Program-made: the position numbers and the translations under genes | Shown here: one piece after another, positions 22,049-63,446 of the stretch | Layout of the letters: the number at the start of each line of letters is the position of its first letter | Position numbering within the stretch: the stretch's first letter is position 1 | Notes under the pieces: generated by a model | Databases searched by the model: none | The model's input: the letters and a program-made list of their open reading frames with translations, nothing else | Told to the model about the DNA's origin: nothing | Source: Bdellovibrionales bacterium | Lineage (GTDB): Bacteria; Bdellovibrionota; Bdellovibrionia; Bdellovibrionales; JAUICD01 | Length of the DNA stretch: 64,000 nucleotides | Reading direction: 5' to 3' | Assembly: GCA_965203875.1 (NCBI GenBank) | Contig: OZ241914.1 | Span: forward strand, 269,209-333,208

Positions 22049-23700
22049 TGAAACACCTAGTATTTATCCTGATATTTGCATTTATTCTGCCCTCTGCTGG
22101 ACAGGCCAACGTAGGGGGCTCTTTTTTGGAAGTAGCTCAAGCACAGGTGAAAAAATCCAAGAAAAGATCAGTTAGAACTAAAAGAAAAGCTAGAAAAACA
22201 AGATCCAACAGAAAGAGAGCAAGAAGATCTAAGTCACAAGCTGCACAAATAAGAAAACTAAATAGCATAGAAGCCATGATAGCCTCTGATAACAATCAAG
22301 GTGCACTTAAGGAATTATTCAAAATAAGAAGAAGTTTTAGGTTTAGATCCCATAGATCAAAAATTTATTATCTTATGGGTTTAGCGTTTTATAATCTTAA
22401 TTTTTACCAAACAGCTGCTTTTCAATTTGGAATGGCTGTGACTGGCTCTAGAGGACGCAACTTAGTAGAGAGCATAAATAAACTAGAACATATAAGCACA
22501 AATATTTTACATTCGAGTGCTATGCTAAACTACGCCTTAAGTAAAGTAGAACTGAGTACTTTTCCTAAAGAATACCAAAATAAATTAAGGGTAGTAATAT
22601 CGGAAGTTTATTTAACCAATAAACAATATGACAGTGTTATAAAAATATTAAGTAAAGTAGACAGAAATAGCGAAGAATACTTAAGAGCCAAATATATTCA
22701 AAGTTTGGCTTATGCAGAAATAAATAAACCCAAGCAAGCATATAAAGGGTTTTCTGAACTAGCTAACATTAGAAATAATCATGCTACGACTGATGTAATT
22801 AGGGTTAATGCAACTTTAGGCATGGCTAGAGCTGCTTACCAAGCCAAAGACTGGAAAGAGGCCATTAGAAAATATAAAATGATACCAAGGGACACTATCC
22901 AGTGGCACGACTCTATATTTGAACTAAGTTGGGCACAGATGCGGGCTGCTCAGTTCAGATCAGCACTTAGTAATTTTCACTCCCTACACTCGCCATATTA
23001 CAAGGAAATGTATCAACCTGAATCACTAATCTTAAGAGCTATAATATATCTCTATATCTGCAAGTATGACGAACTAGATAAAGTGTTAAAAGTGTTCAAA
23101 AACACATATTTTCCAATAAAAGAGAAGCTAGTTAGCTACACTGCTGGCAGTAAAAATCCGAAAGAGGTGTTTGATGATCTAGTTAGTGTTCAAAGGCAAT
23201 ACGAGGAAGGTGTGGAAATAGAACATATAGGCTCAAAATTACCAGTTGTTGGGGCTCTTTCCATTTTAAGAGATCCTAAGATAAAGAATTACTTAAAATA
23301 TGCCCAAATGCTTCAGGCAGAGAAAGTAGTTTTACAAAATGCGTCTTGGGCAAGCTCTGCTATGCAAAGGTATGTGTCTAATATGCTAAACAAAAGACTT
23401 GAAAATACAAAAAAAGCAGCCGGCAGAAGCATTATAAATACCCTGGGTTTGATGAGGTCTCATTTAATAGAGCTCTCAGATCAACAGTACGATTTTATTA
23501 GATATGAAATGTTAGGAGCACAAAAAAGTAAAGCTAATAAGACAACTGATGAAGGTAAAAAATCTAAACAAAGAATAGATGCCAAAATCAACAGAGGATT
23601 TTACGTCAGAAATGGCTATGAGTACTGGCCTTTTGGCGGTGAATATTGGTTAGACGAAATAGGGAACTATTACTTTTTAGGGGTGTCTAACTGTGAATAA
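22048..23700 (+). CDS. gltC: TPR protein, adventurous gliding GltC-like
   Basis: TPRs, FELSWAQM..ALSNFHSLHSPY and C-terminal YWPFGGEYWLDEIGNY. Confidence 0.75.
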   Translation: MKHLVFILIFAFILPSAGQANVGGSFLEVAQAQVKKSKKRSVRTKRKARKTRSNRKRARRSKSQAAQIRKLNSIEAMIASDNNQGALKELFKIRRSFRFRSHRSKIYYLMGLAFYNLNFYQTAAFQFGMAVTGSRGRNLVESINKLEHISTNILHSSAMLNYALSKVELSTFPKEYQNKLRVVISEVYLTNKQYDSVIKILSKVDRNSEEYLRAKYIQSLAYAEINKPKQAYKGFSELANIRNNHATTDVIRVNATLGMARAAYQAKDWKEAIRKYKMIPRDTIQWHDSIFELSWAQMRAAQFRSALSNFHSLHSPYYKEMYQPESLILRAIIYLYICKYDELDKVLKVFKNTYFPIKEKLVSYTAGSKNPKEVFDDLVSVQRQYEEGVEIEHIGSKLPVVGALSILRDPKIKNYLKYAQMLQAEKVVLQNASWASSAMQRYVSNMLNKRLENTKKAAGRSIINTLGLMRSHLIELSDQQYDFIRYEMLGAQKSKANKTTDEGKKSKQRIDAKINRGFYVRNGYEYWPFGGEYWLDEIGNYYFLGVSNCE

Positions 23701-26700
23701 AACCACCATCTTTATTTTAGCATTAATAACTTTCTTGCAAGCAGAAGCCTTGGGAAGAAATTCTAAGACTGTTGAACAGTTACTTAGAAATGTGAACAAA
23801 AAAAGTATAGAGAAAAAGGCAACGGTTATTAGAGCCGGCAAGGTAGAAGAAAAAAAGATCAAAAGATCACAACCTAAAAACATCATGCCTAAATCTGAAG
23901 ACTTTAGGATAAACACCACAGGTGAAGATGCTGTATCTGAACAATTTTTGAATGAACAAATAAGAATTATGTCGGGTTTAGTTAAAAAGCACAAAAGTGC
24001 TAGCACTAGAGGCGAACTATGGCTTAGGTTAGCTGAACTGTATATACAAAAGGCTAGTTACCTAGACAAAGCCATACAGACTAAATTTGATAATGAGCTG
24101 GCCAAGTGGGAAGCTAGAAATAGAACTGGTAAAAGGCCTGTTTTAAATACTTCTTCTGTGAATGAATACAGCATTAGATCTATAAAACTGTGTGAAGCTT
24201 TTCTGACTCAATTTCCTAAAGATTCTAAAGTTGACAGAGTGCTATACTTTTTAGGTCTAAATTATATGGAATTAGGAAAAAGTAAACAGGCGATTAAACA
24301 TTTTAATCAACTGAAGGCCAAATACAAAAACAGTGAGTATATAGGCCTTGCTAGTTTTGTTTTGGCCACACACTACTTTGACACCAGACAATGGACACAA
24401 GCTAAACAGAACTATCTGGCGGTGATAAAAAATAAATACATTGCAAAACCTATAAAACAAAATCTTGTTCCAAATGCACTTTATAAATACGCATGGTCCG
24501 ATCTTCAACTAGACAACCCGGACAGGGCCTTGGTGAATCTTGAAAAGATATATAGACTATCAAAATCTAAAAACTCACTGGAAGGCTATAAAAGATTAAA
24601 AAAACCTGTGTTATTTGACATAGTGCAGATCTATAGCAGAACAAAAAAATCAGCAAGTTCGGCAGAAAGGTATCTAACAAACACATTAGGTTTATCTGAA
24701 AAGAACATTTCAAAATATTTAAAGGCAATAGCATATCAATACAGTGATAATGGAAATCTATCTTCTGCAAGGCTGTTATTTAAAAGATTGATACAAATAA
24801 AACCTAACTCTAAAGAAGCATTGGATTATCAAGAGGAAATTGTCAAAATGTATAGACATGCTGATAATAAAATATTCTTAGCCGAGTTGAACATATACAT
24901 AACAAGATTTGCTAAAGGATCTGATTGGTATAAAGCAAATGTGCAGAATCAAGAACTAATAAATGAGTCTGCTAAAACCAGAGAAATACTTCTTAGAAAT
25001 TATATATTGAACAACCATCAGTTGTATCAAAAAAGCAGAACTAAGGCTAGTAAAAACAGAATCTTAGGCGCATATCCTATCTATCTGAGAGAATTTTCAA
25101 ATAGTAAAGAAGCTTCAACTATGCATTTTTACTATGCAGAACTTATGTATGATTTAAAAAATTATGACAAAGCAATGAAGCATTATATGATTGTTGCTGA
25201 TGGAGATACAAAAAGTAAACATTACGATACAGCTTTGCTTAACGCATTACTTGCAGCAGATGAAACTATTAAGAAAGTTAAGACCAGTAAGAGAACTAAT
25301 TCTATAGAGAAAATTCCATATACCCAAGCAGAAAGTAACTTTGTCAAACTTGCTAAAAAATATGTGGCAACTATAAAAAATGATAAAAACAGTGCCAGCA
25401 TCCATATGAAACTTGCTAGATTATACTATCTAAAAAATAATTTTGACGAAGCTTTGGTAAATTTCTGGGATATAATTAAGAAATTTCCAAAGAGTAAACA
25501 AGCTACTTATTCAGCCAACCTGATATTAGATGTTTATAATTTGAAAAAAGACTATCAAGGCTTAGCCGAAGCTGGTAAGAAGTTATTAAAATATGAAACC
25601 CTTATAGCTAGTGCAGAAGGCGGTAAAAGTGAAATCAAAAACATTAAAAACATTGTCAATAATGCTAGACTTAAGAATGTTCAAGATATTGAAAAGAAAG
25701 GAGATCATTTACTAGCAGCCAGAGAATACATAAAGTTTGCAAAACAAAGTAATGACCTAGATTTAAAAAATAAAGTAACATTCAATGCTGCTATAAACTT
25801 TGAGAAAGCAAATGCTGCTCTAAAAGCTATAGATCAATACGAAGCTTACCTAAAAATAAATAGAGATACCAGTGATGAAACGGTCAAAAAAGCTAATAGG
25901 CTACTAGCAAATCTATATGAGCAAACAGGAAATTTGCAAAAGGCAGCTGTAGAATTTGAAAAGTATGCAAAAAGCTACCCTTCTGATCAATATGCAGATG
26001 AATCTATTTTAAATTCAGCAAGAATTTTTAGAGGTTTCAAACAGTATCAAAAAGCTCTTAATAACTTTAGAACATATCGCAATAAAGTAACATCAAAAGC
26101 CAAAAAAGATAAGATCCTCTTTGAAATAGCAGAGACTAAAGAAGAGATGAGAAACAGATCGCAAGCGTATACAGATTATTCAAATTATGTTACTTCTAAT
26201 CCTTCAGATGGACATATGCTGATGTCTTCTCTTCTAAAATTGTTTAGAATGGCTCAGAAATTTAGAAAGAATGACATTGTCAAATGGCGTGATAAAATAA
26301 TAGGAACGCAAAAAGCTCTTAGTAATATTGGTATGCCTGAAGCAGCTGAGGCAAGGTTTCATAAAGCAAAGCAGTTATATTCAACATTTGCAAAATCCAA
26401 AATATCACACAACCCTGCTAAGCAAGCAGCTACTATTGTGTCAAAACAAAAGTTGTTAGACAAGTTGGCTGCAGAGCTATCTGCAATCATAAAATATGAT
26501 GATGGTCACCATGTGGTGCGATCAGTTGCTATGATTGCAGAAGCAAATGAAGATTTTATTAAAGCAATAGAAGCAGTCCCTGTTCCAAAAGTTCTTAAAA
26601 CAAAACAACAAATTGCTGAATATAAGCAAGGTATAGAACAACAATTACTATCTCCACGTAGAAAAATAGTAATGGAAAATTATAAACTAGCAATAGATAA

Positions 26701-27511
26701 AGCATTTGAGCTCCATGCCTATAATGAAAGTGTAACCAGATCCTTTAAAAGGCTGGCTAAATTAGAACCAAACCAATATTCTTTTATGTCGGAAAAAGTT
26801 ATGCCAGTAGAAAAACTGGACACTTACGGTTTAAACAAAAAAAAGAATAGGGAAAAATATAAAGGTTTGCTAGCTTCGCTAAAGGCAAGAGATCTCAAAT
26901 TAGCAATAAAAGAAGCAGCCAAAATTTTGGCAAAAAATCCTAAGGATGCAGTAGTTTATAACACGCTTGCGGTCATAGCTTTAAACAAAGGTAATAATTA
27001 CCTGGCAGCACTTTATCTAGGTAAAATCCATAAGTCTAGAGGAATTCCTAGCACTACTAAAAAGAATAATATGGCTATGGTGCTGCTAAAAAAAGGAGGC
27101 GCTAATAGATCATTTTCTGAATTTTATGGTTCCGCTTTAAAAAATGAAAATGTAGTAGCTAGTGCAAATGCAGGAACTATTCTTTTAAAATATCAAAATT
27201 TTAAAGATGCCTTGCCATATTTAGCTAAGGCAGCCAGAACATACTCAAAGGATGTAGCAGTACTAAATAACTACGCCATTGCACTTAAATATTCTGGCAG
27301 AACTAGAAAATCGGCAAATGTGTATAAAAAGGCATTAAAATTGGCCTCTTCTAAAAAAGCTGGGTGGATCAAATTAAATTATGCAAGATTAATGCAAAAT
27401 ACCGATAAAAATAAAGCAATTGCTAAAAAAACTTTAAATGAGATTACTTTTAATGAAAGCGACACAAAACTTATTTCCGAGGCTAAAGTACTGTTAAGGC
27501 AAATGAATTAG
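23693..27511 (+). CDS. Large TPR protein, GltD/AgmU-like, possibly with a fused GltE/AglT-like C-terminus
   Basis: 1272 aa with many TPRs (LWLRLAELY, VLYFLG, LYKYAWS); gliding-cluster position. Confidence 0.75.
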   Translation: MNKTTIFILALITFLQAEALGRNSKTVEQLLRNVNKKSIEKKATVIRAGKVEEKKIKRSQPKNIMPKSEDFRINTTGEDAVSEQFLNEQIRIMSGLVKKHKSASTRGELWLRLAELYIQKASYLDKAIQTKFDNELAKWEARNRTGKRPVLNTSSVNEYSIRSIKLCEAFLTQFPKDSKVDRVLYFLGLNYMELGKSKQAIKHFNQLKAKYKNSEYIGLASFVLATHYFDTRQWTQAKQNYLAVIKNKYIAKPIKQNLVPNALYKYAWSDLQLDNPDRALVNLEKIYRLSKSKNSLEGYKRLKKPVLFDIVQIYSRTKKSASSAERYLTNTLGLSEKNISKYLKAIAYQYSDNGNLSSARLLFKRLIQIKPNSKEALDYQEEIVKMYRHADNKIFLAELNIYITRFAKGSDWYKANVQNQELINESAKTREILLRNYILNNHQLYQKSRTKASKNRILGAYPIYLREFSNSKEASTMHFYYAELMYDLKNYDKAMKHYMIVADGDTKSKHYDTALLNALLAADETIKKVKTSKRTNSIEKIPYTQAESNFVKLAKKYVATIKNDKNSASIHMKLARLYYLKNNFDEALVNFWDIIKKFPKSKQATYSANLILDVYNLKKDYQGLAEAGKKLLKYETLIASAEGGKSEIKNIKNIVNNARLKNVQDIEKKGDHLLAAREYIKFAKQSNDLDLKNKVTFNAAINFEKANAALKAIDQYEAYLKINRDTSDETVKKANRLLANLYEQTGNLQKAAVEFEKYAKSYPSDQYADESILNSARIFRGFKQYQKALNNFRTYRNKVTSKAKKDKILFEIAETKEEMRNRSQAYTDYSNYVTSNPSDGHMLMSSLLKLFRMAQKFRKNDIVKWRDKIIGTQKALSNIGMPEAAEARFHKAKQLYSTFAKSKISHNPAKQAATIVSKQKLLDKLAAELSAIIKYDDGHHVVRSVAMIAEANEDFIKAIEAVPVPKVLKTKQQIAEYKQGIEQQLLSPRRKIVMENYKLAIDKAFELHAYNESVTRSFKRLAKLEPNQYSFMSEKVMPVEKLDTYGLNKKKNREKYKGLLASLKARDLKLAIKEAAKILAKNPKDAVVYNTLAVIALNKGNNYLAALYLGKIHKSRGIPSTTKKNNMAMVLLKKGGANRSFSEFYGSALKNENVVASANAGTILLKYQNFKDALPYLAKAARTYSKDVAVLNNYAIALKYSGRTRKSANVYKKALKLASSKKAGWIKLNYARLMQNTDKNKAIAKKTLNEITFNESDTKLISEAKVLLRQMN

Positions 27512-27519
27512 GAAGTGAT

Positions 27520-27771
27520 ATGACTAGATTTTTAATTTTTGTTTTTATAATTTTATTTTCTTTTAATTCTCATGCTCAGAAGAAAAGGAATAAAAGAACA
27601 ACTATAAACTTTGAAGATCAGTTGATCGAGGGCAGTGCTCAAAGCCCTGATCTATTTTTCCTAATGCAAAAAGGAAAATTTGACTTCAAAAAACTTATTA
27701 AACTTAGAGAGAATTTCTTGCCTGAGATGAGAAGATCCACGGAAGAAATAGTAATTAAACGAGGAGAATAG
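27520..27771 (+). CDS. Small exported gliding protein CglF/GltF-like
   Basis: Signal peptide then TTINFEDQLIEG..PD..LIKLRENF. Confidence 0.7.
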   Translation: MTRFLIFVFIILFSFNSHAQKKRNKRTTINFEDQLIEGSAQSPDLFFLMQKGKFDFKKLIKLRENFLPEMRRSTEEIVIKRGE

Positions 27772-27775
27772 TTAA

Positions 27776-30082
27776 GTGAAGCTGGTTTTTATTAGAGTAT
27801 ATAAGGAAGATAAATTATTGTTTGTTAAACAATATCCGTCAACTGACTATATCCTTATAGGGAGTGATCCAGAAGCGTCTCTTAAACTTGATTCTGATAG
27901 TGTTTCATTAGCACATGCAATGATCGAACTTAGAGAAGAAGAATTTTTTATATCTGACTTAGGTGCAGAACAAGGGGTACTTGTAAACGACATCAAAACC
28001 GTAGATCAAGCTATTAAATATGGAGATAATATTCAAGTTGGAGAATTTAGATTGGAATTTTTTGATAAAATTCCAAGGGTAAATAAAGCACCAACTAAAA
28101 AACCTGCTAAAATAAGTGCTCCGGCAAAGACAGCATCTAATGTAGTAGAGACAGATGCAGTAGAAACAGATAATGTTGAATCTGAACAAAAAAAAGCTAA
28201 ACCTAAAAAACCTAAGTCTTTACCTAAGGTTCCTAAAACTCCTAAAGCTCCTCCAAAACTTAAAACCACAGCAGTTAAGCTAAAAAAACCTGTCGCTAGT
28301 CCTGGTAAAGTTAAACCTAGCATAAAACCTCCGCCACCTCCCTCTGCTTTGAATGCAGAACAAACTACAAAAGACTCTACAAAACCTTCTTTAAAAGATA
28401 GAATTAAAGAGAAAACTAAAAAACTAAGAACAAAACCAGCAGCGGCCATAAAAAAGATTATACCTCCTAAGGTAGAAGAATTTCATACTGCTGAAATTAC
28501 CCCAGATGAACAAGTCACTGAAATATCCAAAAATTCTAAAGTAGCGGAAACTCCTGCCAAACCAAGTGTCCCTCCAGCCAAAGTATCAAAGAGTTTTGAT
28601 AATGAAGGTGATAAAATCAATATTAACAACATAAAACCTGGCAAAGGATCCGTTGTTGAGGTGTTAGTAGCATGGGGTAATAGAATAATAGATTCTAATC
28701 ACTTTACTAAAAAATCGGTGACCATAGGATCGAGACAAGGCAATGATATTTTACTTCCTTATGTCGTGGGTGCTGATCATGAGTTATTGAGTATATCACC
28801 TACTCAAACTAAAGTTTTTGTACCTAATGGTATGAATGCATCTGTAATTACTGCTACTAAAAAGTTGAGCTTAGAGCAAATAGAAAAGTCAGGGGGAACA
28901 CTTACTAGTGCAGGTGGTCTGTATGTGATTTTAAAACAAACAGAGATGGTTAAAGTAGAGCTGAGTGATAATATATCATTACTTGTTAGATATGTACCTC
29001 CTACAATTAGACCGTTGATGCTTCCACTGACAGGCCTTTCTGTTCAAGAGCTTACCAATGTGATACTAACAATAGGACTTTCGATTTTGATGTCGTTGTT
29101 TTTTGTTATGTCGGATCAAAAAAATGTAGCAGCAAAAGAAAAAGATCTAGAAGATAAAAAAGAAAGAAAAGCTCTGTTTGTATATAAACCGCCTCCTAGA
29201 CCGCAGACAAGGATTAAGCCACCTCCACCTCCTCCACCTACGACAGTAAAAGTTGTTAAAGTAAAGGAGCAGACTAGAAAACGAAAAATAAAGGCCCCTG
29301 TTAAAAGAAAAGTGGTCAAAAGAGCTGCTAAAAAAGGTAAAGCTAGTGACGCTCCTAGAACAAAAAGCAAATCCAACAAAAAAGTACTAACTGCAAAAAA
29401 TCCAGGTACAGGCAAAGGTATAAGTCGTGGTACAAGTCCCAAAAAAGCTCCAATAGATACACAAAAAGTTGGTCTGTTAGGGTTATTTGCTAAGGGAGGA
29501 ACTCAGAAAAGTTTAAGAAATGCCACTGATGGTTCAGGTGTATCCGCCGCTGCAAAAGGTGCTACAGGCATTGGTTCTAAGAAAGCTGCTGGTTCGGGTA
29601 CAGTTGTTGGTAGTGGATTAAATCAGGTAGGTAAAAGCGGTAAAGGAGAAAGTACGTTTGGAATTGCAGGTGTTAAAACCAGAGGAAGAGGAAGCGGAAA
29701 CAGCGGATATGGAAGCGGAGGAAATCTTGGAGGTAGAGGAGGCACCAACATAGAAGCAGGTGGTGCAGAAGAAGCCTTCGAAGGATCTATTGATAGAGAA
29801 GCAATAAAAAGAGTCGTGCAAAGACATCTAAATCAACTCAGAACTTGTTACAAAAGAGCATTGGATAAGAGGCCAACTGCTCAAGGAAAAGTTGTAATTA
29901 ACTGGACAATTTTATCTGGAGGTAAAGTTGGAAGAGCTAGAACAGTTAGCAACGAAATGAACGATTCAGCTATGTCACGCTGTATGGTATCAAGGTTGCG
30001 TTCATGGCGGTTCCCATCTCCACCAGATGGTCAAGTTGGAGATATTACTTATCCGTTTGTGTTTACACCAGCATCTAACTAA
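27776..30082 (+). CDS. FHA domain plus TM plus TonB-like C-terminal protein (GltG/AgmX/PglI family)
   Basis: N-terminal FHA (VSLAHAMIE..ISDLG..G), Pro/Lys-rich linker, TM, Gly-rich region, C-terminal IKRVV..LRTCY..W.FP..YPFVF. Confidence 0.85.
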   Translation: MKLVFIRVYKEDKLLFVKQYPSTDYILIGSDPEASLKLDSDSVSLAHAMIELREEEFFISDLGAEQGVLVNDIKTVDQAIKYGDNIQVGEFRLEFFDKIPRVNKAPTKKPAKISAPAKTASNVVETDAVETDNVESEQKKAKPKKPKSLPKVPKTPKAPPKLKTTAVKLKKPVASPGKVKPSIKPPPPPSALNAEQTTKDSTKPSLKDRIKEKTKKLRTKPAAAIKKIIPPKVEEFHTAEITPDEQVTEISKNSKVAETPAKPSVPPAKVSKSFDNEGDKININNIKPGKGSVVEVLVAWGNRIIDSNHFTKKSVTIGSRQGNDILLPYVVGADHELLSISPTQTKVFVPNGMNASVITATKKLSLEQIEKSGGTLTSAGGLYVILKQTEMVKVELSDNISLLVRYVPPTIRPLMLPLTGLSVQELTNVILTIGLSILMSLFFVMSDQKNVAAKEKDLEDKKERKALFVYKPPPRPQTRIKPPPPPPPTTVKVVKVKEQTRKRKIKAPVKRKVVKRAAKKGKASDAPRTKSKSNKKVLTAKNPGTGKGISRGTSPKKAPIDTQKVGLLGLFAKGGTQKSLRNATDGSGVSAAAKGATGIGSKKAAGSGTVVGSGLNQVGKSGKGESTFGIAGVKTRGRGSGNSGYGSGGNLGGRGGTNIEAGGAEEAFEGSIDREAIKRVVQRHLNQLRTCYKRALDKRPTAQGKVVINWTILSGGKVGRARTVSNEMNDSAMSRCMVSRLRSWRFPSPPDGQVGDITYPFVFTPASN

Positions 30083-30094
30083 AAGGAGGATATT

Positions 30095-30775
30095 GTGGAA
30101 GAAGAAGTAATGCAGGAAGTGGTAGAGCGAAACTTTATAGCACAGGCATTTATAGATGGCGGAATACCAACAATGACCGCTATTGCTATAGTTGGTGTGC
30201 TAACCGCACTACTTATAGTAGAAAGATTTATGACGCTTAGTAAATTTGGAGTTGATAAGAGAAGCGTAACAGATGGAGTATTTAATGCGATACTTCGTGG
30301 GGACATAGCAACTGCTATTTCGTTTTGCGATTCAAAAATAACTCCGCTTACTGATACTCTTAAGGCTGGGCTTGTTCAGGTTATGAATAAAAGAAATGAC
30401 GAAGAAGTTCAGGTAGCTATGGATGCTGCTGTGTTAAGACATACTCCTAAAGTGGAAGGTTGGACAGGATTTTTGGCTGTCTTTGGTAACGTTGCAACTT
30501 TGGCAGGACTACTTGGAACAATCATAGGTTTGATAAAAGGTTTTGGAGCACTTGCAGAAGTTGATCCAGCAGAAAAAGCAAACATCCTATCTGCAGCAAT
30601 ATCTCACGCACTGAACTGTACAGCATTTGGTTTGATTGTGGCAATACCGGCTATTATTGGATATGGATTTTTCCAAGTTCGTGTTGGAAGACTTCTAAAT
30701 GATATGACCGAAAGCTCTATGAGTTTGATGAATGTAGTAGTTTCTAATAGAGATAAAATCTATAAAGGTAAGTAA
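30095..30775 (+). CDS. MotA/TolQ/ExbB proton channel (AglR-like)
   Basis: ATLAGLLGTIIGLI..F and ALNCTAFGLIVAIP motifs. Confidence 0.92.
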   Translation: MEEEVMQEVVERNFIAQAFIDGGIPTMTAIAIVGVLTALLIVERFMTLSKFGVDKRSVTDGVFNAILRGDIATAISFCDSKITPLTDTLKAGLVQVMNKRNDEEVQVAMDAAVLRHTPKVEGWTGFLAVFGNVATLAGLLGTIIGLIKGFGALAEVDPAEKANILSAAISHALNCTAFGLIVAIPAIIGYGFFQVRVGRLLNDMTESSMSLMNVVVSNRDKIYKGK

Positions 30776-31242
30776 TGGCAAATGTTGAAGAAAGTGGTGG
30801 TGGAAGGGAGATAAACTCAGAACCTAACATCATACCTTTTATAGATTTGATGAGTGTGTGTATTATATTCTTGCTTTTAACAGCAGTGTGGACACAAGTA
30901 TCTATGATCCAAATAGGTAGCTCTGTATACGGCAAAAAAACTAGCGAAGAAGAAAAACCTCCTCCGCCTCCAAAAGTACCAATGGTGCTTCAAGTATATG
31001 ATAGAGGTTTTGTAATAAACCTGGCAGGAACTAGAACAAGTATACCTAAGGCAGATGATGAATTTGATCAAAGATCATTGATATTAGCCCTTCAAGACAT
31101 AAAAGATAAATATCCTGACAAAAAAGATGCAATGATCTCAGTTGATGAAAAACTTAATTACGAAAATCTCATTGTAGGTATGGATAGCCTTTTGTTATCC
31201 GGATTTCCAGATGTGACAATACAAACTGGGAGAGTTAGGTAA
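30775..31242 (+). CDS. ExbD/TolR family protein (AglQ/AglS-like)
   Basis: NIIPFIDLMSVCIIFLL TM segment with the conserved Asp. Confidence 0.9.
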   Translation: MANVEESGGGREINSEPNIIPFIDLMSVCIIFLLLTAVWTQVSMIQIGSSVYGKKTSEEEKPPPPPKVPMVLQVYDRGFVINLAGTRTSIPKADDEFDQRSLILALQDIKDKYPDKKDAMISVDEKLNYENLIVGMDSLLLSGFPDVTIQTGRVR

Positions 31243-31868
31243 TGCCTATATACGCTCCTGGAAAAAGATATAAAGGAAGAGCAGCGGGGTTTAAATCGGG
31301 TAGAAAATTAGTTGCACAACTTTCCTTAACAGCCATGGTGGATATGTTCACAGTCTTGGTGGTGTTTTTGCTTATGAACTATAAAACTACTGAAACGGTT
31401 TTATATATTCCAAAAGAAGTAACTCTTCCAGAAGCCAGCGAAATTAAAGAATTACAGCCAGCACATGTTGTTACAGTAACCGATGCAGAAGTGTATTTAG
31501 ATAAAGAGTTAGTAGCTACTTATGAAGAAGTCAAGCAGCAAACTAGCTGGATGATTGAAAGACTTAGATATAGAATTCAAGAGATGTTTAGAGAAGATGA
31601 TGTAGAATTTAACGAAAGATTAAATACTGTTTTGAGATCAGCTGTTGGCCAAATAGATGAAGAAGAAAAACTCAGAGAAAAAGACAACAGACGAAAGATC
31701 ACAATACAAGCTGATAAAGAAACAGATTTTCTAACAATTAAAAAAGTTATGTATACAGTTAGTGAAGCAGGAGCTAAAGAAATTAGCTTTGCTGTTAATT
31801 CTATACCACCTGATAAAGGTATAACCGAGATACTTAGACATTTTGATCTAAAAGATCTGCCTAATTGA
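31242..31868 (+). CDS. ExbD/TolR family protein (AglQ/AglS-like)
   Basis: LTAMVDMFTVLVVFLL and IQADK motifs. Confidence 0.9.
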   Translation: MPIYAPGKRYKGRAAGFKSGRKLVAQLSLTAMVDMFTVLVVFLLMNYKTTETVLYIPKEVTLPEASEIKELQPAHVVTVTDAEVYLDKELVATYEEVKQQTSWMIERLRYRIQEMFREDDVEFNERLNTVLRSAVGQIDEEEKLREKDNRRKITIQADKETDFLTIKKVMYTVSEAGAKEISFAVNSIPPDKGITEILRHFDLKDLPN

Positions 31869-56042: not shown

Positions 56043-56045
56043 ATT

Positions 56046-56515
56046 TAAGGTCCTTCGTTTTTGAATTAAAGGTCTTCAATTTTTAATAAGTGTACATGAC
56101 GAATCAATAAGGCCGCAGGTCAAGCGAAGTTATGTACACTTTTAAAAATGTTTACCAGCTCTCAAGGTAAACTCCAAAAGATTATCTAAAGGTCTTTAAA
56201 TTTTGTCAAAGATTAGCGAAGCGGTAAGGCATACAGTTTAAAGCGTAGCTATGAAAACATTTGGTAAAACTTTAGGGCTTTAAGACAATCTGTCGTAGTT
56301 TACCTTGAACGTTGGTTAACATTTTATCAAATAATAGCTTAGCACCCAAGCCCTTCAATTCTTATCAAAGCTAGCGAAGTGGTTAGACCGCAGGTCAAAC
56401 GAAGCTAGGTTTTGATAAGAATGTTGTGCACCATTCAAGGTAAACTACGAAAACTTTTCTCGACCTTTGGTCTTACCACTACGCTAGCTATTATTTGATA
56501 AAATTAAAAAGCTTT
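56046..56515. repeat. Cluster of hairpin-repeat copies: C0 end fragment 56046-56061, C1 56068-56175, C2 56188-56280, C3 ~56293-56515 (minus strand, interrupted), C4 56348-56450 (nested in C3)
   Basis: Same AAGG(T/C)CTTCAATT left end, G(A/G)CC-GCA-GGTC core and TTCAAGGTAAACT right end as copies A and B; the outer stems are self-complementary. Confidence 0.85.
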
Positions 56516-56921
56516 AGTGTCTCAATGTGATAATTTATATGTGTGTGAGGGGTATTTTTCTGGACTTAGTTTTGTTTTTCTTTGTGAAAAGGGTTTTTTG
56601 TCGTAGAATTTAGAGTTTGGTAAGTTTGGTTTTAAGTTTTAGGTTTTTATTTTGTTTTTTTTAAGATCTTTATTTATTCGTTTTAAAAATACTTTTCTTT
56701 TAAAGGGCCGGCTGAAAGCCGGCAGATTGATTGGGCCGAAGGTTGGTTTTTATAAAGCTCCGCAGTCGCAAGTTAATTTTTTGTTTAAGAGGCTGGCCGA
56801 AGGCCAGCAAACTGATCCAACCGTAGGTAAGCCAGCAAATGCGTCCAGTCGCCATGGATGGTTCAAAAGCTTATGTGAATCACGAAAAACTTGGTTACTC
56901 CGAAGTTCTGCAGCCGTTAGG

Positions 56922-57230
56922 TTGCAAAAGCTTCCAACCGCAGGTTGTGGATTTACGATGTTGGAGACATTGATAGGATTGGCGTTGGTATCAGCTACAG
57001 GTTTTGTGGTTACGTTTATGACGGCTAACATGACGACTTTAACTCAGAGGAAGCATGATACTTATATGTGTTCATCTGTAGCTGGTAATGTATTGGCTCA
57101 TTTTTCTAAGAATGGCAGTAAGGTTTCTCCTAAGAAAGAAGTAGCTACTATATCTACTGTTTCTACTACCTCTACTACCCAAAATTTGGGGGGGGGGGGG
57201 CGACCAAAATTTAAGCAAGATTGGTCATAA
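56922..57230 (+). CDS. Type IV prepilin-like N-terminal segment, out of frame with the downstream ORF at a poly-G tract
   Basis: Prepilin motif G|FTMLETLIGLALVS plus hydrophobic helix. TTG start at 56922 is inferred. Confidence 0.7.
   Translation: MQKLPTAGCGFTMLETLIGLALVSATGFVVTFMTANMTTLTQRKHDTYMCSSVAGNVLAHFSKNGSKVSPKKEVATISTVSTTSTTQNLGGGGRPKFKQDWS
57188..57200 (+). repeat. G13 homopolymer, candidate contingency locus
   Basis: Thirteen consecutive G at the frame switch between the two ORFs in an AT-rich genome. Confidence 0.85.
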
Positions 57231-57318
57231 TACTTCTGTAGATTCTCCATTAAGTGCTTCATCTAGTGGAGTTACTTTACATTTAGATAGGTTATATGAT
57301 GGTTCAGATGTTGGAGTT

Positions 57319-60300
57319 TTGGAGGACTTGTATAATAAGTATTTAAAGACATCTTCTACTAATCCTATTTCTATATGTCCATCAGATGCTCAAATTAGTA
57401 ACAGTTCAGCTTTGACTTTTGATCTAGTGAAGATGGAGTTTAAGTCTCATGAGTCTTCTGCTCCTTTGATAAAGTTAGGTGATTTAGACAAGTGGGTTGA
57501 AGAGAATCCTAATAAATATCGTAAGCTTAAGGATGAAGATAAACGGACAGCTCATCAAGGGCTAGCAGACAACAATGGTTCATCTTCAGATGGATATAAG
57601 TGGGATAGGTTGACCGGAGAGTCGTTATTTTTGTTAAGTGAGCGTTTATCTGATATATCGTCCTTATCCTTTGGTCCAGTTGAGCCTGTGAGTAGTTATA
57701 CTCCTGTAAGTAATTACATAGCTAAGTCTAAGTATGATGTTCGTATTGGTATAAGGCCTTGGGATATAAGCAAGAATGAGAAGACAGATAGTTGTAACAG
57801 GCATAAGAGTAAGGCTATACATCCTATTTTTGTTCGTCCTCGTTCTGTTTATGATAAACCTGAGAATTCAGATAAGAGTAAGTTAGGTTATAAGCTTGCT
57901 TCTAGTTTATCAGGTTTGCCTGAGGCTAATATTCGTCATGATCTTGGATTTAAGTTATTTGTGGAGGTTGAGGAGAGGAAGGCAGTATCTAGTTATGATC
58001 CTATCAGATGCAGAGCTGAGAAGGTATTTTCTTATTCTCAGAGGTATGTAACAGCACGCAATAAGACAATAGTAAAGACTACTTCAGTTACTACTACGAC
58101 CCCACCTGTTAGTAGTTTTCAAGCTAATTTAGCTAGTAACAAAAATAACAACAAGTTAGTTAGTAGCAAAGCTAATAACAACAAGTTAGTTAGTAACAAC
58201 TTAGTTAGTAATCTGGCTAATAAAGCTAATAGTAAGCATAATCCATCTACAATATCTCTATCTTCTGTGTCTAATTCTGAGGCTGATTCTTCAGACAGTT
58301 CATCAACTTCAACAACGACCACTACCCTTCAATGTACTACAAATTCTGATAATTCTACGACATGTAGGTTTAAGCTAGAAGGTCGTGTGTGGGATAGGGG
58401 TTATAGGTGTCCAGATGGTAATGATGATAATGATGAAGGATATTGTTTAAATTCCAGTTTTAGTAAGGGAGTATTTTTATGTCGTTTGAACAAAAAGATT
58501 AGTGGTATAGATTATCCAGTTGGAGATTGGTTTTTATGTGATGATTTATCTGGTAGCTCCTTTACTATTGGTGATGATACACATCCTGTGACTGCCCAGC
58601 TATATGCGAGTGATCCTAGTGATCCTGAAGATGGCGATCGTAGTAAAGATAAGGAGTTACATTTAAGATTTACTGAGTTGCCTGCACCTGATTCTAGTAT
58701 TGAGTATAGTATAGAGCTCAGGTTAGTGGATGAGTATGGTAACTACTCTCCATCGCCTCAAGAAGATGCACTTATTTTCTCTACGACTACTACAACGGAT
58801 CCATGTGCTGGGGTAACATGCACTGGCATTCAGAGGTGTAATAGTGCTACTGGCCGTTGTGAATGTCCAGCTAATCATGCTAGTTGTCGTAATAATGCTA
58901 TTTGCTGTGATCCTGGTAGTATTTGCGTAAATAATGGTTGTGCTTGTGATGATACTGCTTGTGGGCTTCTTGGAAAAGTTTGTGTAAATGGCCATTGTGT
59001 AAATCAACAAACCCAGCAAACCTGTGAGCAAAAGAGAGGTGTGGATAATTGTAAAACATGTGTTGGCGTAAGTACTCATGGAAATCCTGTAACTAAAACA
59101 TGTCCTTCAAGTCAGACTTTAAATACCAACACTTGTGTTTGTGAAGCTAGTGGTTGTACACCTGCAAGCTGTCCTTCTGGATGGGGCACAGATGCACCTT
59201 GTAGTGGTGGGAGTTCACAGCAAGTTACTGGAGGATGTAATGATACAATAACTTGCTATCGTGGAGGTACTGTATGTTCTAGCCCTACTCCTTATTGTAG
59301 TAGTGGAAGTTGTGTACGATGTACTGATGACTGGCACTGTTCTGGTAGGAAGGTTTGTGAGAATAATAGTTGTGTAGATCCTCCTCCTGCTTGCAATAAG
59401 AGTTGTTCTAATTGTTCAGGTGCATGTGATAGTTGTGATACATGTACAGGAACATGTACTAAATGTCTACCAAACTACACTTGCAACACAAGCACAAGAA
59501 GGTGTGAGCGTGATGATCCATGTGATGGTGTAACCATAACCTGTGGTTCTGGAAGTATGCGTGGTTATCCACACGGTTTACGACAAACTTGTAACTCTGA
59601 TCCAAGAACAGAATGCGGAACAACTTGCTATAGTGGAAGTGGTTCTACCTGCACCGCAAATGATTGTTATAAGTGTCGTGGTGGTCAGTGTGGTTCACGT
59701 GTGAAGAAAACATCAAGTGAAGTATCTTGTCCAAGTACTCATCCAAATACTTCACAACAAACTTGTAATAGTCGTTCAACCAGAGTATGTGGTGTAAAAA
59801 CATGCTGGAATGGAAGCGGTCCTACCTGCATCCCAAATGATTGTTATAAGTGTCGTGGTGGTCAGTGTGGTTCACGTGTAGCTAAAACAGCAAGTGAAGT
59901 ATCTTGTCCAAGTACTCATCCATATACTTCAAAACAAACTTGTAAGAGTACTAAAAAAACACCGCTAGTATGTGGTGTAAAAACATGCTGGAATGGAAGT
60001 GGTCCTACCTGCATCCCAAATGATTGTTATAAGTGTAATCCTGATCAATGCGGTACACGTGTAGCTAAAACAGCAAGTGAAGTATCTTGTCCAGCTTCTC
60101 ATCCACATACTTCACAACAAACTTGTAATAGTCGTTCAACCAGAGTATGTGGTGTAAAAACCTGTTGGGATGGAGAAAATTGCTCTGAAGGTTATAGCTG
60201 TAACAGCAATGGTGACTGTGAGGAGGATGACGACTCAGACTCCTGTGATGATGCTGATTGTGCCAAATTGGATAGTACATGTGGTGGAAGCTGCGGTACG

Positions 60301-60492
60301 AATGGGAGATGCACAGGAGGTTCTAAATGTAAAAATAATACTTCATATTGCAGTCGTCTAACAAAGCTTAACGGAGAAGTAGAGTATACATGCACACAAT
60401 GTGAAGCTAATAAGAGTTCTGGCGGTTGCCCGGATGAACATTACTGTAATGCACTAGGAGTATGTGTACCAGATAATCGACCGTGGATATAA
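57319..60492 (+). CDS. Large cysteine-rich repeat protein, probable C-terminal body of the prepilin-like protein (frame open from 57145)
   Basis: ORF track. No own signal peptide, S/T-rich linkers, dense C-x-C modules and tandem ~59-61 aa Cys repeats. Confidence 0.8.
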   Translation: MEDLYNKYLKTSSTNPISICPSDAQISNSSALTFDLVKMEFKSHESSAPLIKLGDLDKWVEENPNKYRKLKDEDKRTAHQGLADNNGSSSDGYKWDRLTGESLFLLSERLSDISSLSFGPVEPVSSYTPVSNYIAKSKYDVRIGIRPWDISKNEKTDSCNRHKSKAIHPIFVRPRSVYDKPENSDKSKLGYKLASSLSGLPEANIRHDLGFKLFVEVEERKAVSSYDPIRCRAEKVFSYSQRYVTARNKTIVKTTSVTTTTPPVSSFQANLASNKNNNKLVSSKANNNKLVSNNLVSNLANKANSKHNPSTISLSSVSNSEADSSDSSSTSTTTTTLQCTTNSDNSTTCRFKLEGRVWDRGYRCPDGNDDNDEGYCLNSSFSKGVFLCRLNKKISGIDYPVGDWFLCDDLSGSSFTIGDDTHPVTAQLYASDPSDPEDGDRSKDKELHLRFTELPAPDSSIEYSIELRLVDEYGNYSPSPQEDALIFSTTTTTDPCAGVTCTGIQRCNSATGRCECPANHASCRNNAICCDPGSICVNNGCACDDTACGLLGKVCVNGHCVNQQTQQTCEQKRGVDNCKTCVGVSTHGNPVTKTCPSSQTLNTNTCVCEASGCTPASCPSGWGTDAPCSGGSSQQVTGGCNDTITCYRGGTVCSSPTPYCSSGSCVRCTDDWHCSGRKVCENNSCVDPPPACNKSCSNCSGACDSCDTCTGTCTKCLPNYTCNTSTRRCERDDPCDGVTITCGSGSMRGYPHGLRQTCNSDPRTECGTTCYSGSGSTCTANDCYKCRGGQCGSRVKKTSSEVSCPSTHPNTSQQTCNSRSTRVCGVKTCWNGSGPTCIPNDCYKCRGGQCGSRVAKTASEVSCPSTHPYTSKQTCKSTKKTPLVCGVKTCWNGSGPTCIPNDCYKCNPDQCGTRVAKTASEVSCPASHPHTSQQTCNSRSTRVCGVKTCWDGENCSEGYSCNSNGDCEEDDDSDSCDDADCAKLDSTCGGSCGTNGRCTGGSKCKNNTSYCSRLTKLNGEVEYTCTQCEANKSSGGCPDEHYCNALGVCVPDNRPWI
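59659..60172 (+). repeat. Coding tandem repeat, about 3 copies of 177-183 bp
   Basis: AATGATTGTTATAAGTGT recurs at 59659, 59836 and 60019 with near-identical intervening DNA. Confidence 0.9.
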
Positions 60493-60638: not shown

Positions 60639-63446
60639 ATGAAACTCAAATTTATTAGACATATTTTAAAAGCAGATATTGGTAGAACAAAAGAGTTTTT
60701 GTTCTTTGCAGTGTCTTTTGTGGTGTTTTTTGTATTTACTTATGCCAAAGCTCAAACTACCTACACAGAACCTAGTTCTTATGACTTGCAGCTAGCTAAT
60801 AGAGCTGTCTCCTCTTGCAGAGTCTTACAAGATGTTATTAGCAAAAATAGTCAAATTGAAGACATACCAGCTATTCAAGCTTTTGTTGAATTACAAAAAA
60901 CAGAAGATAGGAATCTTCTAATAGATAACGAATCTTGTAGAGAAAGTATTTTAGAGTTTATTTCAAGTTTATGTAGTTCTAGTTCTTCTAAGAACAATCT
61001 TTATTGCGAAAGCTTAGGTATTAAAAAGAGCTACGATAATGGTGATACTGGAATTGATGACGGTATTAACGATTATAAGAACTTTGGTCAATCTGCTATA
61101 GATAACTTAGGTATAGATCTATCAGATAATATAAGCTTTGAGTCAGGATTAGGTGAAGAAGAAAAAGAAGAAGAGCAGAGCAAACTAAAGTTTTTAGCAG
61201 CAGGTACATTATTTTATTTAAGTCCTGTAAAAAAGCTTAGAACTGCTTCAAATGTAGCTGCTAGAATAAAACCTGTTCTGAGTGGAGCATTGTTAATATT
61301 AGCTACCTTAGGTTTATCGTCTTGTAGTGATGCCACAGGTCCTGAGCCAGTTAAACCTCCAACTGTAGTAGAAACTCCCTGTACTAGAAGAGAATCTGGT
61401 TATTTTCAACTATCAGGCACCGACAACGAATGTATAAAGCTTCCAAGCTTAACTTATTCCTTCATAGCTAATGATGGCACAGAGTCAGATTCATCAAACG
61501 GTGATCCTGATATCAGTATAAAACTAAAGTTTAATTCTGAGGTTGTTTTTATAAATAACTCCGGATGGCAAGAATTAACCGAAGAAAATATTCTAGAGAT
61601 TCTTGAGATCAAAAAGAATGACGCAGACAATGATTTGACTACTCAAGATGGACCTATAACACAAGATAACATAGCTATAACCCAAGAAAGCTCTAACACA
61701 GTTATTACTATATCTCCTCCAAGTAGTCCTAATGGAAAAATCTATCATGTTGGGGATTATTCTATTTTAACCAAAAACTATGCTCCAAGGACAGATGCTG
61801 CAAAAGTACAACAAAGTAGTAATACTGATGCTTATATAACTGCTATAACAAAAGAATCTTCATTTAGTATTACTGGTAATAATCCATGTGTTAGAGGCCA
61901 AGAAGGCCACTTTTATTTTAGAGATGCCAATAATACTGCAAGGTGTGAAAATTTAATCCCAAGCACAACGTACACTGTTAGCTCAAACAATGATCCTCAA
62001 GCTACTTTAGAAATAAGCTTTGGTACTGATATAGTATACATAGACGAAACAGGATGGTCTGAAATAGATGAAAACAAAATTTTAGACATACTATCTATTA
62101 ACCCTGTTGATATTGGTGCTGATTATACCATTAATACTGACGATTTGTTAGTAGAAGATGGTCCTATTAATATAGATCAAATCACCGTAACCAAAACAAA
62201 TTCAAACATCACTATTGAAATAGATCCTCCTAACACCGGATTAAATCCACATGGAGTACATCAGGTTGGTCTATATCAAGCTGGTGATTATATAATATCT
62301 GCTACTAATTATATTAAAAGATCAGATATGGATATAGTGACTCAACATAATATCTTTGGAAGTTATTTAGAAGCTGTAAAAAATAGTAATAGTAAAAGCT
62401 TTAGTATTGATGCTGTAGCAAATTTAGCTTGTGGAGTAGAATCATCTCAGGGTTATGTACCCACAATACCTATTGATGATGAAAACCAAGAGCAATCTTT
62501 TTGCAAAGCTTATGTGCATGATCTACCGCCTGAATTAGCTATGGCAGCACATCATAACTATCAACCTAGAAGAGCTGATCCTAATAAAACTTATGTGATA
62601 GATATTGGCTTTGTAATGTCCGAAAGATATTCTACACCTGGTTGGGATGGCTTTGTGATGAATGAAGTAATTCCTCACGTGAATGGTATTTTTCAAAGAT
62701 CAGGAGTGAATGTGGAATTTAGAGCTGCAGCTATTGTACCCTTCCAAAATTATAGGTATTACTTACCTTGTCAGATTGATACTATAGATTTAAAAAATAG
62801 AAGTGCTGTATCTAGTGTTGTATTTAATATGATTCCCGTAATACGTCAGCATTATGGAGCTGATCTCATTTATACAATACAAAATTATAACAAAAATGTA
62901 GAAGCTTGTGGGATAGCTGCTGCCAGGCTAGATGGTTTTACATCAGAACGAGCGAGCAGAGCTGCCTATGGCTCAGTCGACCCTAGTTGTTCCAGTGAGA
63001 TAATGCCTGATATGTCTAGTCATTCGCAACATCATGTTTTTATAGAAACTTTATCTCATGAAATTGGCCATAACTTAGGATTAGCTCATAACAAAGAAGA
63101 GTTTTCGACATTTCCTGTTAAAGGTATCCCTCCTAAGGCTTACGGGTATAGAGGTGAAGCTAACACGGTATATGGACAAACTTTAGCATATGGAACCATA
63201 ATGTCAGTTCGGACAGCTGCTGTACCTTTCTTTAGTGCCAACAAAACCGTAACTAAAGAAGAATTATGCGTGGATGAAGATAGGCATGATAATCAACTTG
63301 ATGCTGGGTTTTGCCCATCTCATTACGATAAACTGGTTGATGATCAGCTACTTCGTTTAGGAGATGACCAAGTGGATGCTGCGGAAGCTTTGCAGTACAC
63401 AATAGAAGATGCCTCTAAATATTCTTGTAACCCTGGCTCCTGCTAG
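60639..63446 (+). CDS. Secreted metzincin (reprolysin/M12B-like) zinc metalloprotease with a duplicated middle domain
   Basis: HEIGHNLGLAH (HExxHxxGxxH, 63057-63089), YGTIMS Met-turn, N-terminal signal peptide. Confidence 0.85.
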   Translation: MKLKFIRHILKADIGRTKEFLFFAVSFVVFFVFTYAKAQTTYTEPSSYDLQLANRAVSSCRVLQDVISKNSQIEDIPAIQAFVELQKTEDRNLLIDNESCRESILEFISSLCSSSSSKNNLYCESLGIKKSYDNGDTGIDDGINDYKNFGQSAIDNLGIDLSDNISFESGLGEEEKEEEQSKLKFLAAGTLFYLSPVKKLRTASNVAARIKPVLSGALLILATLGLSSCSDATGPEPVKPPTVVETPCTRRESGYFQLSGTDNECIKLPSLTYSFIANDGTESDSSNGDPDISIKLKFNSEVVFINNSGWQELTEENILEILEIKKNDADNDLTTQDGPITQDNIAITQESSNTVITISPPSSPNGKIYHVGDYSILTKNYAPRTDAAKVQQSSNTDAYITAITKESSFSITGNNPCVRGQEGHFYFRDANNTARCENLIPSTTYTVSSNNDPQATLEISFGTDIVYIDETGWSEIDENKILDILSINPVDIGADYTINTDDLLVEDGPINIDQITVTKTNSNITIEIDPPNTGLNPHGVHQVGLYQAGDYIISATNYIKRSDMDIVTQHNIFGSYLEAVKNSNSKSFSIDAVANLACGVESSQGYVPTIPIDDENQEQSFCKAYVHDLPPELAMAAHHNYQPRRADPNKTYVIDIGFVMSERYSTPGWDGFVMNEVIPHVNGIFQRSGVNVEFRAAAIVPFQNYRYYLPCQIDTIDLKNRSAVSSVVFNMIPVIRQHYGADLIYTIQNYNKNVEACGIAAARLDGFTSERASRAAYGSVDPSCSSEIMPDMSSHSQHHVFIETLSHEIGHNLGLAHNKEEFSTFPVKGIPPKAYGYRGEANTVYGQTLAYGTIMSVRTAAVPFFSANKTVTKEELCVDEDRHDNQLDAGFCPSHYDKLVDDQLLRLGDDQVDAAEALQYTIEDASKYSCNPGSC

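Follow-up and report, generated by a model that had tools for sequence, protein, structure and literature searches.

A variable poly-G tract as a candidate contingency switch in an orphan gene family with prepilin-like N-termini

What is a run of 13 consecutive G's doing inside what appears to be one long gene of an AT-rich bacterium? The run lies at 57188-57200 of a 64,000-nucleotide stretch of DNA (hereafter the window; positions 269,209 to 333,208 of contig OZ241914.1, Bdellovibrionales bacterium, assembly GCA_965203875.1), where it separates a short open reading frame (ORF) with a prepilin-like motif from a much longer downstream frame. The original prediction took it for a candidate ON/OFF phase-variation switch of a single giant pilin-like adhesin, assembled in the OFF state. 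Our analysis favors, as the probable explanation, a slipped-strand contingency (phase-variable) switch in a lineage-restricted multigene family of which the window gene is one member.

A poly-G tract separates two reading frames

The gene is composed of the following features, with coordinates given relative to the window:

56652-56948, plus strand: variable leader, in frame with the prepilin motif and containing GC-rich hairpin-forming modules
56949-57187, plus strand: prepilin-like module, with Gly(-1) at 56949-51, Phe(+1) at 56952-54 and Glu(+5) at 56964-66
57188-57200, plus strand: G13 homopolymer, the candidate slipped-strand switch, +1 out of frame as assembled
57201-57230, plus strand: out-of-frame tail RPKFKQDWS of the truncated product, with its TAA at 57228-57230
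57202-58983, plus strand: conserved domain, in the +1 frame, from DQNLSKIGHN to the first Cys-rich block
58984-60492, plus strand: variable Cys-rich C-terminal region, with its stop at 60490-60492

The run is uninterrupted and exactly 13 G's long. The next-longest run of G or C in the window (35% GC) is 6, and the chance expectation for G/C runs of at least 13 in the window is about 1.7e-5. Over the ~149 kb formed by the window and its related loci, the only G/C runs of at least 7 are the eight homologous tracts, that of the window among them. Poly-G tracts of at least 9 are an accepted predictor of phase variation (PMC5953494), and the G13 tract lies inside a reading frame.

On the prepilin side, the ORF at 56652-57230 reads ...GCG|FTMLETLIGLALVSATGFVV... 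and terminates as ...TTQNLGGGGRPKFKQDWS* at the TAA at 57228-57230. The downstream frame follows a stop at 57142-57144 and is open from 57145 to the TAA at 60490-60492; the open frame set apart from the prepilin side by the tract comprises 1,096 codons. Tract lengths of G9, G12 or G15 bring the two frames of the window together. Editing the tract in silico to G12, G15 or G9 produced single ORFs of 1189, 1190 and 1188 amino acids, respectively, counted from the TTG at 56922, with the fused junction ...QNLGGGGDQNLSK.... The reading of both frames and the fusion to a protein of about 1189 amino acids, as put forward in the original prediction, were thus reproduced. A change in repeat number therefore toggles between a full-length and a truncated product, in these edits as well as in the natural G9 and G12 alleles described below.

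The linker beside the tract is type-specific, being either TCTACT...AAAATTT or AAAAAAATC. A role of the tract as a promoter spacer for the downstream ORF was considered and rejected because continuous in-frame homologs exist and the downstream ORF has neither a signal sequence of its own nor a nearby start.

The tract is shared by an orphan gene family and varies in length

A homolog search with the fused protein returned close relatives only. The 1,600,901-bp contig that carries the window encodes five more C-terminal fragments (P0003, P0007, P0008, P0010 and P0033), all starting just 3' of the tract position, and one continuous paralog, P0011. Further members are found on a 1,239,795-bp contig (ENA ERZ25067941) and on several metagenome contigs. 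The family counts seven copies in the 1.6-Mb genome of the window and six in the related 1.24-Mb genome; instead of the single locus originally described, there are 6-7 independently interrupted paralogs per genome. Searching with the N-terminal ORF retrieved a matching set of short N-terminal fragments which, except for P0019 and P0020, terminate directly past the poly-Gly as ...GGGGRPKFKQDWS or ...GGG(G)ATKI, the two possible out-of-frame read-throughs of the G tract.

A HMMER scan of the conserved domain against 1.84 billion representative sequences, run exhaustively, identified only the family and one out-group, P0022, a continuous protein of 1398 amino acids (41% identical) with the textbook prepilin signal ARKVG|FTLIETLIGLALV. 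Because P0022 is uninterrupted and lacks poly-Gly where the two parts join, the one-protein architecture is apparently ancestral and the tract is, by the same comparison, an insertion specific to this sub-lineage. In genome and metagenome contig collections, scans for the exact flank pattern gave zero matches and protein-seeded locus searches did not find true relatives; by protein-seeded search, no GTDB representative genome encodes the family.

We compiled 15 alleles from at least five assemblies. The tract was read directly from DNA in eight loci and inferred from protein ends in seven, an inference that assumes GGG codons, as found in every locus read.

Window, 1.6-Mb genome: G13, out of frame (DNA)
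L001, orthologous locus in the 1.24-Mb genome: G14, out of frame (DNA)
L003, paralog in the 1.24-Mb genome: G14, out of frame (DNA)
L086, paralog in the 1.24-Mb genome: G14, out of frame (DNA)
L002, ERZ25070167: G9, in frame, 1198-amino-acid protein (DNA)
L084, ERZ25070167: G11, out of frame (DNA)
L085, ERZ25070167: G14, out of frame (DNA)
L087, JGI 3300006527: G10, out of frame, in a context that requires G8 or G11 (DNA)
Other paralogs in the genome of the window: G13, G13 and G11 (inferred from proteins)
Other paralogs in the 1.24-Mb genome: G11, and G12 in the continuous P0025, 1286 amino acids (inferred from proteins)
Elsewhere: G14 in P0026, and G12 in the continuous P0031, 1193 amino acids (inferred from proteins)

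The tract occupies an identical position in paralogs and orthologs, while its length ranges from 9 to 14 (one G9, one G10, three G11, two G12, three G13 and five G14; n = 15). Its flanks are conserved across this range, as illustrated by the window (G13) and L001 (G14) and by L002 (G9) and L085 (G14). In the three continuous alleles, P0006 (G9, 1198 amino acids), P0025 (G12) and P0031 (G12), the junction reads KKSGGG(G)DQNLSK, matching the predicted fusion. Full-length homologs, a search for which the original prediction had recommended, include these three proteins and the out-group P0022.

Out-of-frame copies remain intact

In six complete split loci, the downstream frame is free of stops over 1018-1096 codons at 35% GC, and in L087, which lies on a short JGI contig, all 792 codons up to the contig end stay open. 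No second lesion was found in any of the seven split alleles read from DNA. Pairwise ratios of nonsynonymous to synonymous substitution (dN/dS) in the conserved domain range from 0.27 to 0.68, and the out-of-frame alleles are thus otherwise intact. Moreover, different paralogs are in frame in different strains, P0031 and P0025 being examples. Judged from these sequences, this is the pattern expected if each copy is ON part of the time.

The same observations bear on the idea that the family is decaying, with redundant paralogs being lost, the homopolymer frameshift as the first irreversible lesion and only the continuous copies (P0011/P0036 type and P0025) functional. Small genomes of 1.24-1.6 Mb would fit such reductive evolution, as would the presence of one divergent paralog (P0011/P0036 type) that is continuous in both genomes. 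Decay is nevertheless at odds with the lesion-free open frames, with dN/dS values below 1 in the split alleles, with the strain-dependent identity of the in-frame paralogs and with the representation of both out-of-frame phases among the tract lengths. We consider it highly improbable.

Intact frames downstream of a frameshift could also be maintained by recoding, if slippage of the RNA polymerase, or frameshifting by the ribosome, at the G tract yielded some full-length protein whatever the tract length. The tract would then act as a rheostat or as a device making two products, the stub and the long protein. In keeping with this, the out-of-frame alleles, which make up 12 of the 15 and represent both alternative frames, nevertheless have downstream frames that are intact and under selection. 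Long homopolymers are known sites of transcriptional slippage, a phenomenon established at A/T runs in bacteria and endosymbionts; efficient slippage is, however, documented mainly for A/T and not for G runs. No stimulatory downstream structure or slippery heptamer was identified, and the existence of in-frame DNA alleles together with varying DNA length suffices to explain why the frame is retained. Recoding is in our view improbable, if somewhat less so than decay.

A model for the proposed switch

For a slipped-strand contingency switch, we propose the following model. The family proteins, of ~1,200-1,300 residues, consist of a prepilin-like signal and helix, a conserved domain of ~590 residues and a shuffled Cys-rich C-terminus, with the tract placed in a Ser/Thr/Gly linker ~80 codons past the putative prepilin cleavage site. 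Slipped-strand mispairing during replication would shift the tract by about one G per event, presumably at high frequency within a population, and each paralog would toggle on its own. With the tract in frame (G9, G12 or G15 in the context of the window), the full-length protein would be made and exported, whereas an out-of-frame tract would leave no more than a pilin-like stub of ~90 residues. Because the tract is located ~80 codons past the cleavage site, the OFF product would be this helix-plus-linker stub and not nothing. The G13 allele of the window would, as assembled, be OFF. The full-length protein may be processed by prepilin peptidase, displayed on or by a type IV filament, and mediate recognition of a host, prey or surface.

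The ON/OFF switch of the original prediction is accordingly strongly supported in its principal part by the shared tract site, the lengths of 9-14, the natural G9 and G12 fusions and the selected, intact split frames, while the assignment of this particular locus to OFF is uncertain at a homopolymer of such length.

Several observations weigh against the model, some concerning the tract and others the pilin-like nature of the protein. In-frame alleles amount to 3 of 15, a proportion not distinguishable from a random one third (P = 0.21), and the data are therefore silent on selection on the state. All tract lengths come from consensus assemblies, while the defining behavior of a contingency locus is length heterogeneity within a population. 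Inside each closed genome, the long tracts are uniform (13, 13 and 13 in one; 14, 14 and 14 in the other), which could reflect systematic long-read consensus error. Contig names ('contig_1', 'ctg..._7.32x_l') and a coverage of 5-7x hint at the use of long-read assemblers.

These points raise the possibility of an assembly artefact, in which the tract is real with its length miscalled by 1-2 bases, expression of the genes, which are truly in frame, is constitutive, and their division into two ORFs is an artefact of annotation. Nanopore consensus is unreliable at homopolymers of 10-11 or more and causes false frameshifts (PMC9262707). The G9 tract, the shortest and most reliably called, is in frame. 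However, the window and L001 belong to different strains (115 single-nucleotide polymorphisms, SNPs, in 12.7 kb, ~0.9%) and their flanks align with zero indels over 12.7 kb plus 3.5 kb, with each of the 23 homopolymers compared (A/T of 7-9, C of 5) having the same length in both. Apart from the tract length, a single SNP distinguishes them within the ~480 nt surrounding the tract. L002 (G9) and L085 (G14) differ in the tract although the 504 codons that follow it are identical. Tracts of G11 and G12 are present as well in one of the closed genomes, G9, G11 and G14 occur together in one metagenome assembly, and the out-of-frame N-terminal fragment of the JGI contig, with its G10, is carried independently by a Logan assembly. 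Miscalls would, in addition, need to strike nearly every paralog. Runs of 9-14 G's in coding sequence are intrinsically hypermutable (PMC5953494), even where individual lengths have been called incorrectly. We therefore regard an artefact as unlikely. The polymorphism of the tract, and hence its probable hypermutability, is well supported by these comparisons; whether any one long tract is ON or OFF, and with it whether the window allele is OFF, is not certain.

The N-terminal module and its leader

The second group of objections concerns the pilin-like module. Scores for the prepilin-type models fall below their cut-offs (PF07963 at 13.9, 14.7 and 17.4 bits against 21.2; TIGR02532 at 12.7 against 16.3). 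An AlphaFold2 prediction for P0006 from a 15-sequence family alignment reached a mean predicted local distance difference test (pLDDT) score of only 30.5, too low for the model to be used. No type IV pilus gene was found among the scanned window ORFs or among the Pfam-matched flanking genes of the paralog loci. Finally, the leader upstream of the motif appears from its sequence to be translated over 45-100 amino acids, which is atypical for prepilins; a short basic leader (~5-30 amino acids) directly after the start codon is not present.

The evidence for translation of the leader comes from its indels and its start codons. Among loci, the leader differs by indels of 87, 87, 117 and 66 nt, all multiples of 3, and by one 1-nt insertion in L003. 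In-frame TTG codons upstream of the motif are found at 56652, 56727, 56781 and 56922, of which the TTG at 56652 is the sole in-frame start common to all loci and would give a leader of ~100 amino acids. Because the indels are multiples of triplets and the TTG at 56652 alone is common to all loci, the leader seems to be translated. The start originally assigned, TTG 56922, cannot be general: it falls inside an 87-nt in-frame deletion in the ortholog L001, where the nearest start is 45 codons upstream.

The extra G in L003 (5322-5324, corresponding to about 56709 in the window; GGGCCGGGCTG vs GGGCCGGCTG) is the only non-triplet indel of the leader and breaks its long frame. Possible explanations are a true mutation, a further small site of slippage or an error of assembly.

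Short GC-rich hairpins such as GGCCGGCTGAAAGCCGGC and GGCTGGCCGAAGGCCAGC populate the leader (56700-56950; also 6140-6170 in L002 and 826-850 in L087), and the arms of one of them vary compensatorily (CTGGCC...GGCCAG vs CTGGCT...AGCCAG). They may represent a structure, at the DNA or RNA level, superimposed on the open frame. When the leader region was folded as RNA, its stability did not exceed that of shuffled sequences (z = -1.16), and we therefore make no riboswitch-like claim.

Upstream of the leader, the alignment of seven loci shows one more feature:

56527-56651, plus strand: conserved 5' cassette upstream of the long ORF, near-invariant in the 7-locus alignment

A sigma-70-like match (TTGTGA-16-TAGAAT) is found at 56582-56609 and is not above chance; scans for promoters and terminators likewise stayed at chance level.

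Beyond its motif residues, the module contains a hydrophobic helix and an amphipathic stretch, as well as a linker rich in Ser and Thr (ISTVSTTSTTQN). The prepilin motif G|FTMLETLIGLALVSATGFVVTF is present together with the ~20 hydrophobic residues expected after it. Residues G, F, T, E, T, L, I, G and L do not vary among members, even among those only 40% identical, and the motif persists in distant members as G|FTLIE (P0022) and G|FTLLE (P0011). The ComGF, GspI and PilV models gave weak N-terminal matches; a profile search of the PDB with the N-terminal module returned no pilin and only chance antibody matches (E ~8). The description 'pilin-like' thus holds for the invariant G|FTxxE and hydrophobic motif and fails at the Pfam and NCBIfam cut-offs. 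On sequence grounds, a prepilin-type signal is likely and pilin identity is unproven. A role as adhesin is suggested by analogy, from the architecture (compare the modular pilins, PMC8179133) and from the variability.

Comparison with known systems

The closest precedents appear to be Neisseria pilC1/pilC2 for the mechanism and opa for the multigene aspect (PMC5953494). According to the account of Jonsson et al. (1991) in PMC5953494, pilC1 and pilC2 contain genic tracts of G9-20 that switch ON/OFF. The likeness, as far as that account goes, lies in a 5'-proximal intragenic G tract in a gene for a large type IV pilus-associated protein, with more than one independently switching paralog. Among the differences, PilC/PilY1 is not a pilin and has a C-terminal beta-propeller; no Pfam match to a PilY1-type propeller was detected in the 1096-amino-acid C-terminal part of the window protein or in full-length homologs. 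The pilC tract lies in the region coding for the signal peptide, whereas the present tract is found ~80 codons past the putative cleavage site, where the OFF state leaves a pilin-like stub. The copy number (6-7 per genome) and the source, an uncultured lineage near Bdellovibrionota, differ as well.

The Neisseria opa genes and the surface families of mycoplasmas resemble the present family in having many paralogs, each with a 5' coding repeat, in combining a conserved 5' part with variable parts, in that most copies are OFF at any time and in that the paralogs recombine. The mycoplasma repeat units are poly-A or GAA. Those of opa are CTTCT pentamers (PMC5953494). The proteins are unrelated, being beta-barrel outer-membrane proteins or lipoproteins in those families, while each gene described here has a metalloprotease gene as its partner. 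Campylobacter jejuni and Helicobacter pylori share with this organism a small AT-rich genome, rare long G/C runs, the placement of such runs in surface genes and ON/OFF control by frameshift; their loci belong to many families (mostly glycosyltransferases, outer-membrane proteins and restriction-modification), in contrast to the one family and one conserved position of all tracts found here.

Modular type IV pilins, such as Streptococcus sanguinis PilB/PilC and CofB of enterotoxigenic Escherichia coli, similarly have a class III signal and helix followed, after a linker, by large grafted modules; a position of these modules at the pilus tip, for adhesion, has been proposed (PMC8179133). The present family differs in having a pilin module defined by motif alone, no identifiable beta-sheet head, a leader of apparently 45-100 amino acids and an orphan Cys-rich passenger. 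We know of no description of phase variation for the known modular pilins.

Such an architecture opens a further, speculative reading to which we give little weight, namely combinatorial surface variation on type IV filaments. The 6-7 independent paralogs, each with a pilin-like anchor, a shuffled Cys-rich 'head' and its own metalloprotease, would then toggle between 'decorated' and 'bare' states, with a free helix-only mini-pilin of ~90 residues as the OFF product. Because the tract would lie just after the alpha-1 anchor, OFF would not be a null state. If true, the host or prey surfaces that can be bound could change.

Nearly all described contingency loci based on simple sequence repeats (SSRs) are those of cultured, host-adapted pathogens (such as Neisseria, Haemophilus, Campylobacter, Helicobacter and Mycoplasma). 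The locus described here would be a clear candidate from an uncultured bacterium with a genome of 1.2-1.6 Mb, near Bdellovibrionota. In the searchable literature, no account of phase variation by SSRs was found for Bdellovibrio or Bdellovibrionota. The mechanism itself is textbook, which limits the surprise; the new part is a previously undescribed orphan family with a prepilin-type N-terminus. If the switch is confirmed, these proteins would be the variable interface of the organism with its host, prey or environment, phase variation in metagenomes would gain a concrete read-level test, and annotators would be warned that each 'split' pair is one gene.

The source organism

The best matches of the LigA protein (44-47% identity) are mostly metagenome-assembled genomes of Bdellovibrionales/Pseudobdellovibrionaceae, consistent with a placement near Bdellovibrionota; AtpD was too conserved to place the organism. 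No GTDB species representative has a LigA protein more than 47% identical to this one, and the two source genomes, each in a single contig, measure 1.60 and 1.24 Mb at 35% GC. The lineage is deep and has a reduced genome, and it may depend on a host or prey. Neither mutS nor mutL was found among the scanned ORFs of the 64-kb window.

The conserved domain, the Cys-rich region and neighboring genes

The conserved domain (57202-58983) has 88-98% DNA identity with all paralogs (blastn against the paralog loci), and no Pfam or NCBIfam model matched the large protein above cut-off. Paralogs share a near-identical 5' part of 2.4 kb comprising the cassette from at least 56527, the leader, the module, the tract and ~1.8 kb of coding sequence. 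The 3' part of 1.5 kb, which is Cys-rich, is a mosaic in which paralogs share modules in differing combinations. In the window, three tandem units of 177 nt (59634-60174, 85% matches) encode a 59-amino-acid Cys-rich repeat. Copy number and order of the repeats vary by paralog, and P0004, P0005 and P0033 contain 4-5 copies of a different repeat of 50 amino acids. Myxo_Cys_RPT gave a weak match in one paralog.

The gene is followed by a putative protease:

60639-63446, plus strand: Reprolysin-like zinc metalloprotease (M12B-type, HEIGHNLGLAH; Pfam PF13582 and PF13583)

A Reprolysin-like paralog adjoins every family gene examined (window, L001, L002, L003, L084, L085 and L086), on the same strand in the window and convergent in five other loci. 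The partners are 935-1123 amino acids long with the motif HExxHxxGxxH (L002 9681-13007; L003 8980-11814; L084 from 8963; L085 from 7017; L086 from 8704). The family gene and the protease gene look like a two-gene cassette. In several loci, genes for a DsbA-like protein and an ankyrin-repeat protein are located just upstream.

Between a lolC/E-like gene and the family gene, the region 56043-56650 contains nested inverted repeats, also seen in L002 (5400-5900). Two copies of a unit with CCGCAGGTCAA[GA]CGAAG are found there ~275 nt apart (2 in the window vs 0.01 expected), and similar inverted-repeat units precede a paralog. These units look like elements of the MITE type (miniature inverted-repeat transposable elements) or structured RNA.

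Elsewhere in the window, a cluster at 21179-31868 encodes a 1272-amino-acid tetratricopeptide repeat (TPR) protein, a 768-amino-acid FHA/YscD-like protein, one MotA/ExbB homolog, two ExbD homologs and several ORFs without a Pfam match, and may be a Tol/Exb-type or gliding-type motor cluster.

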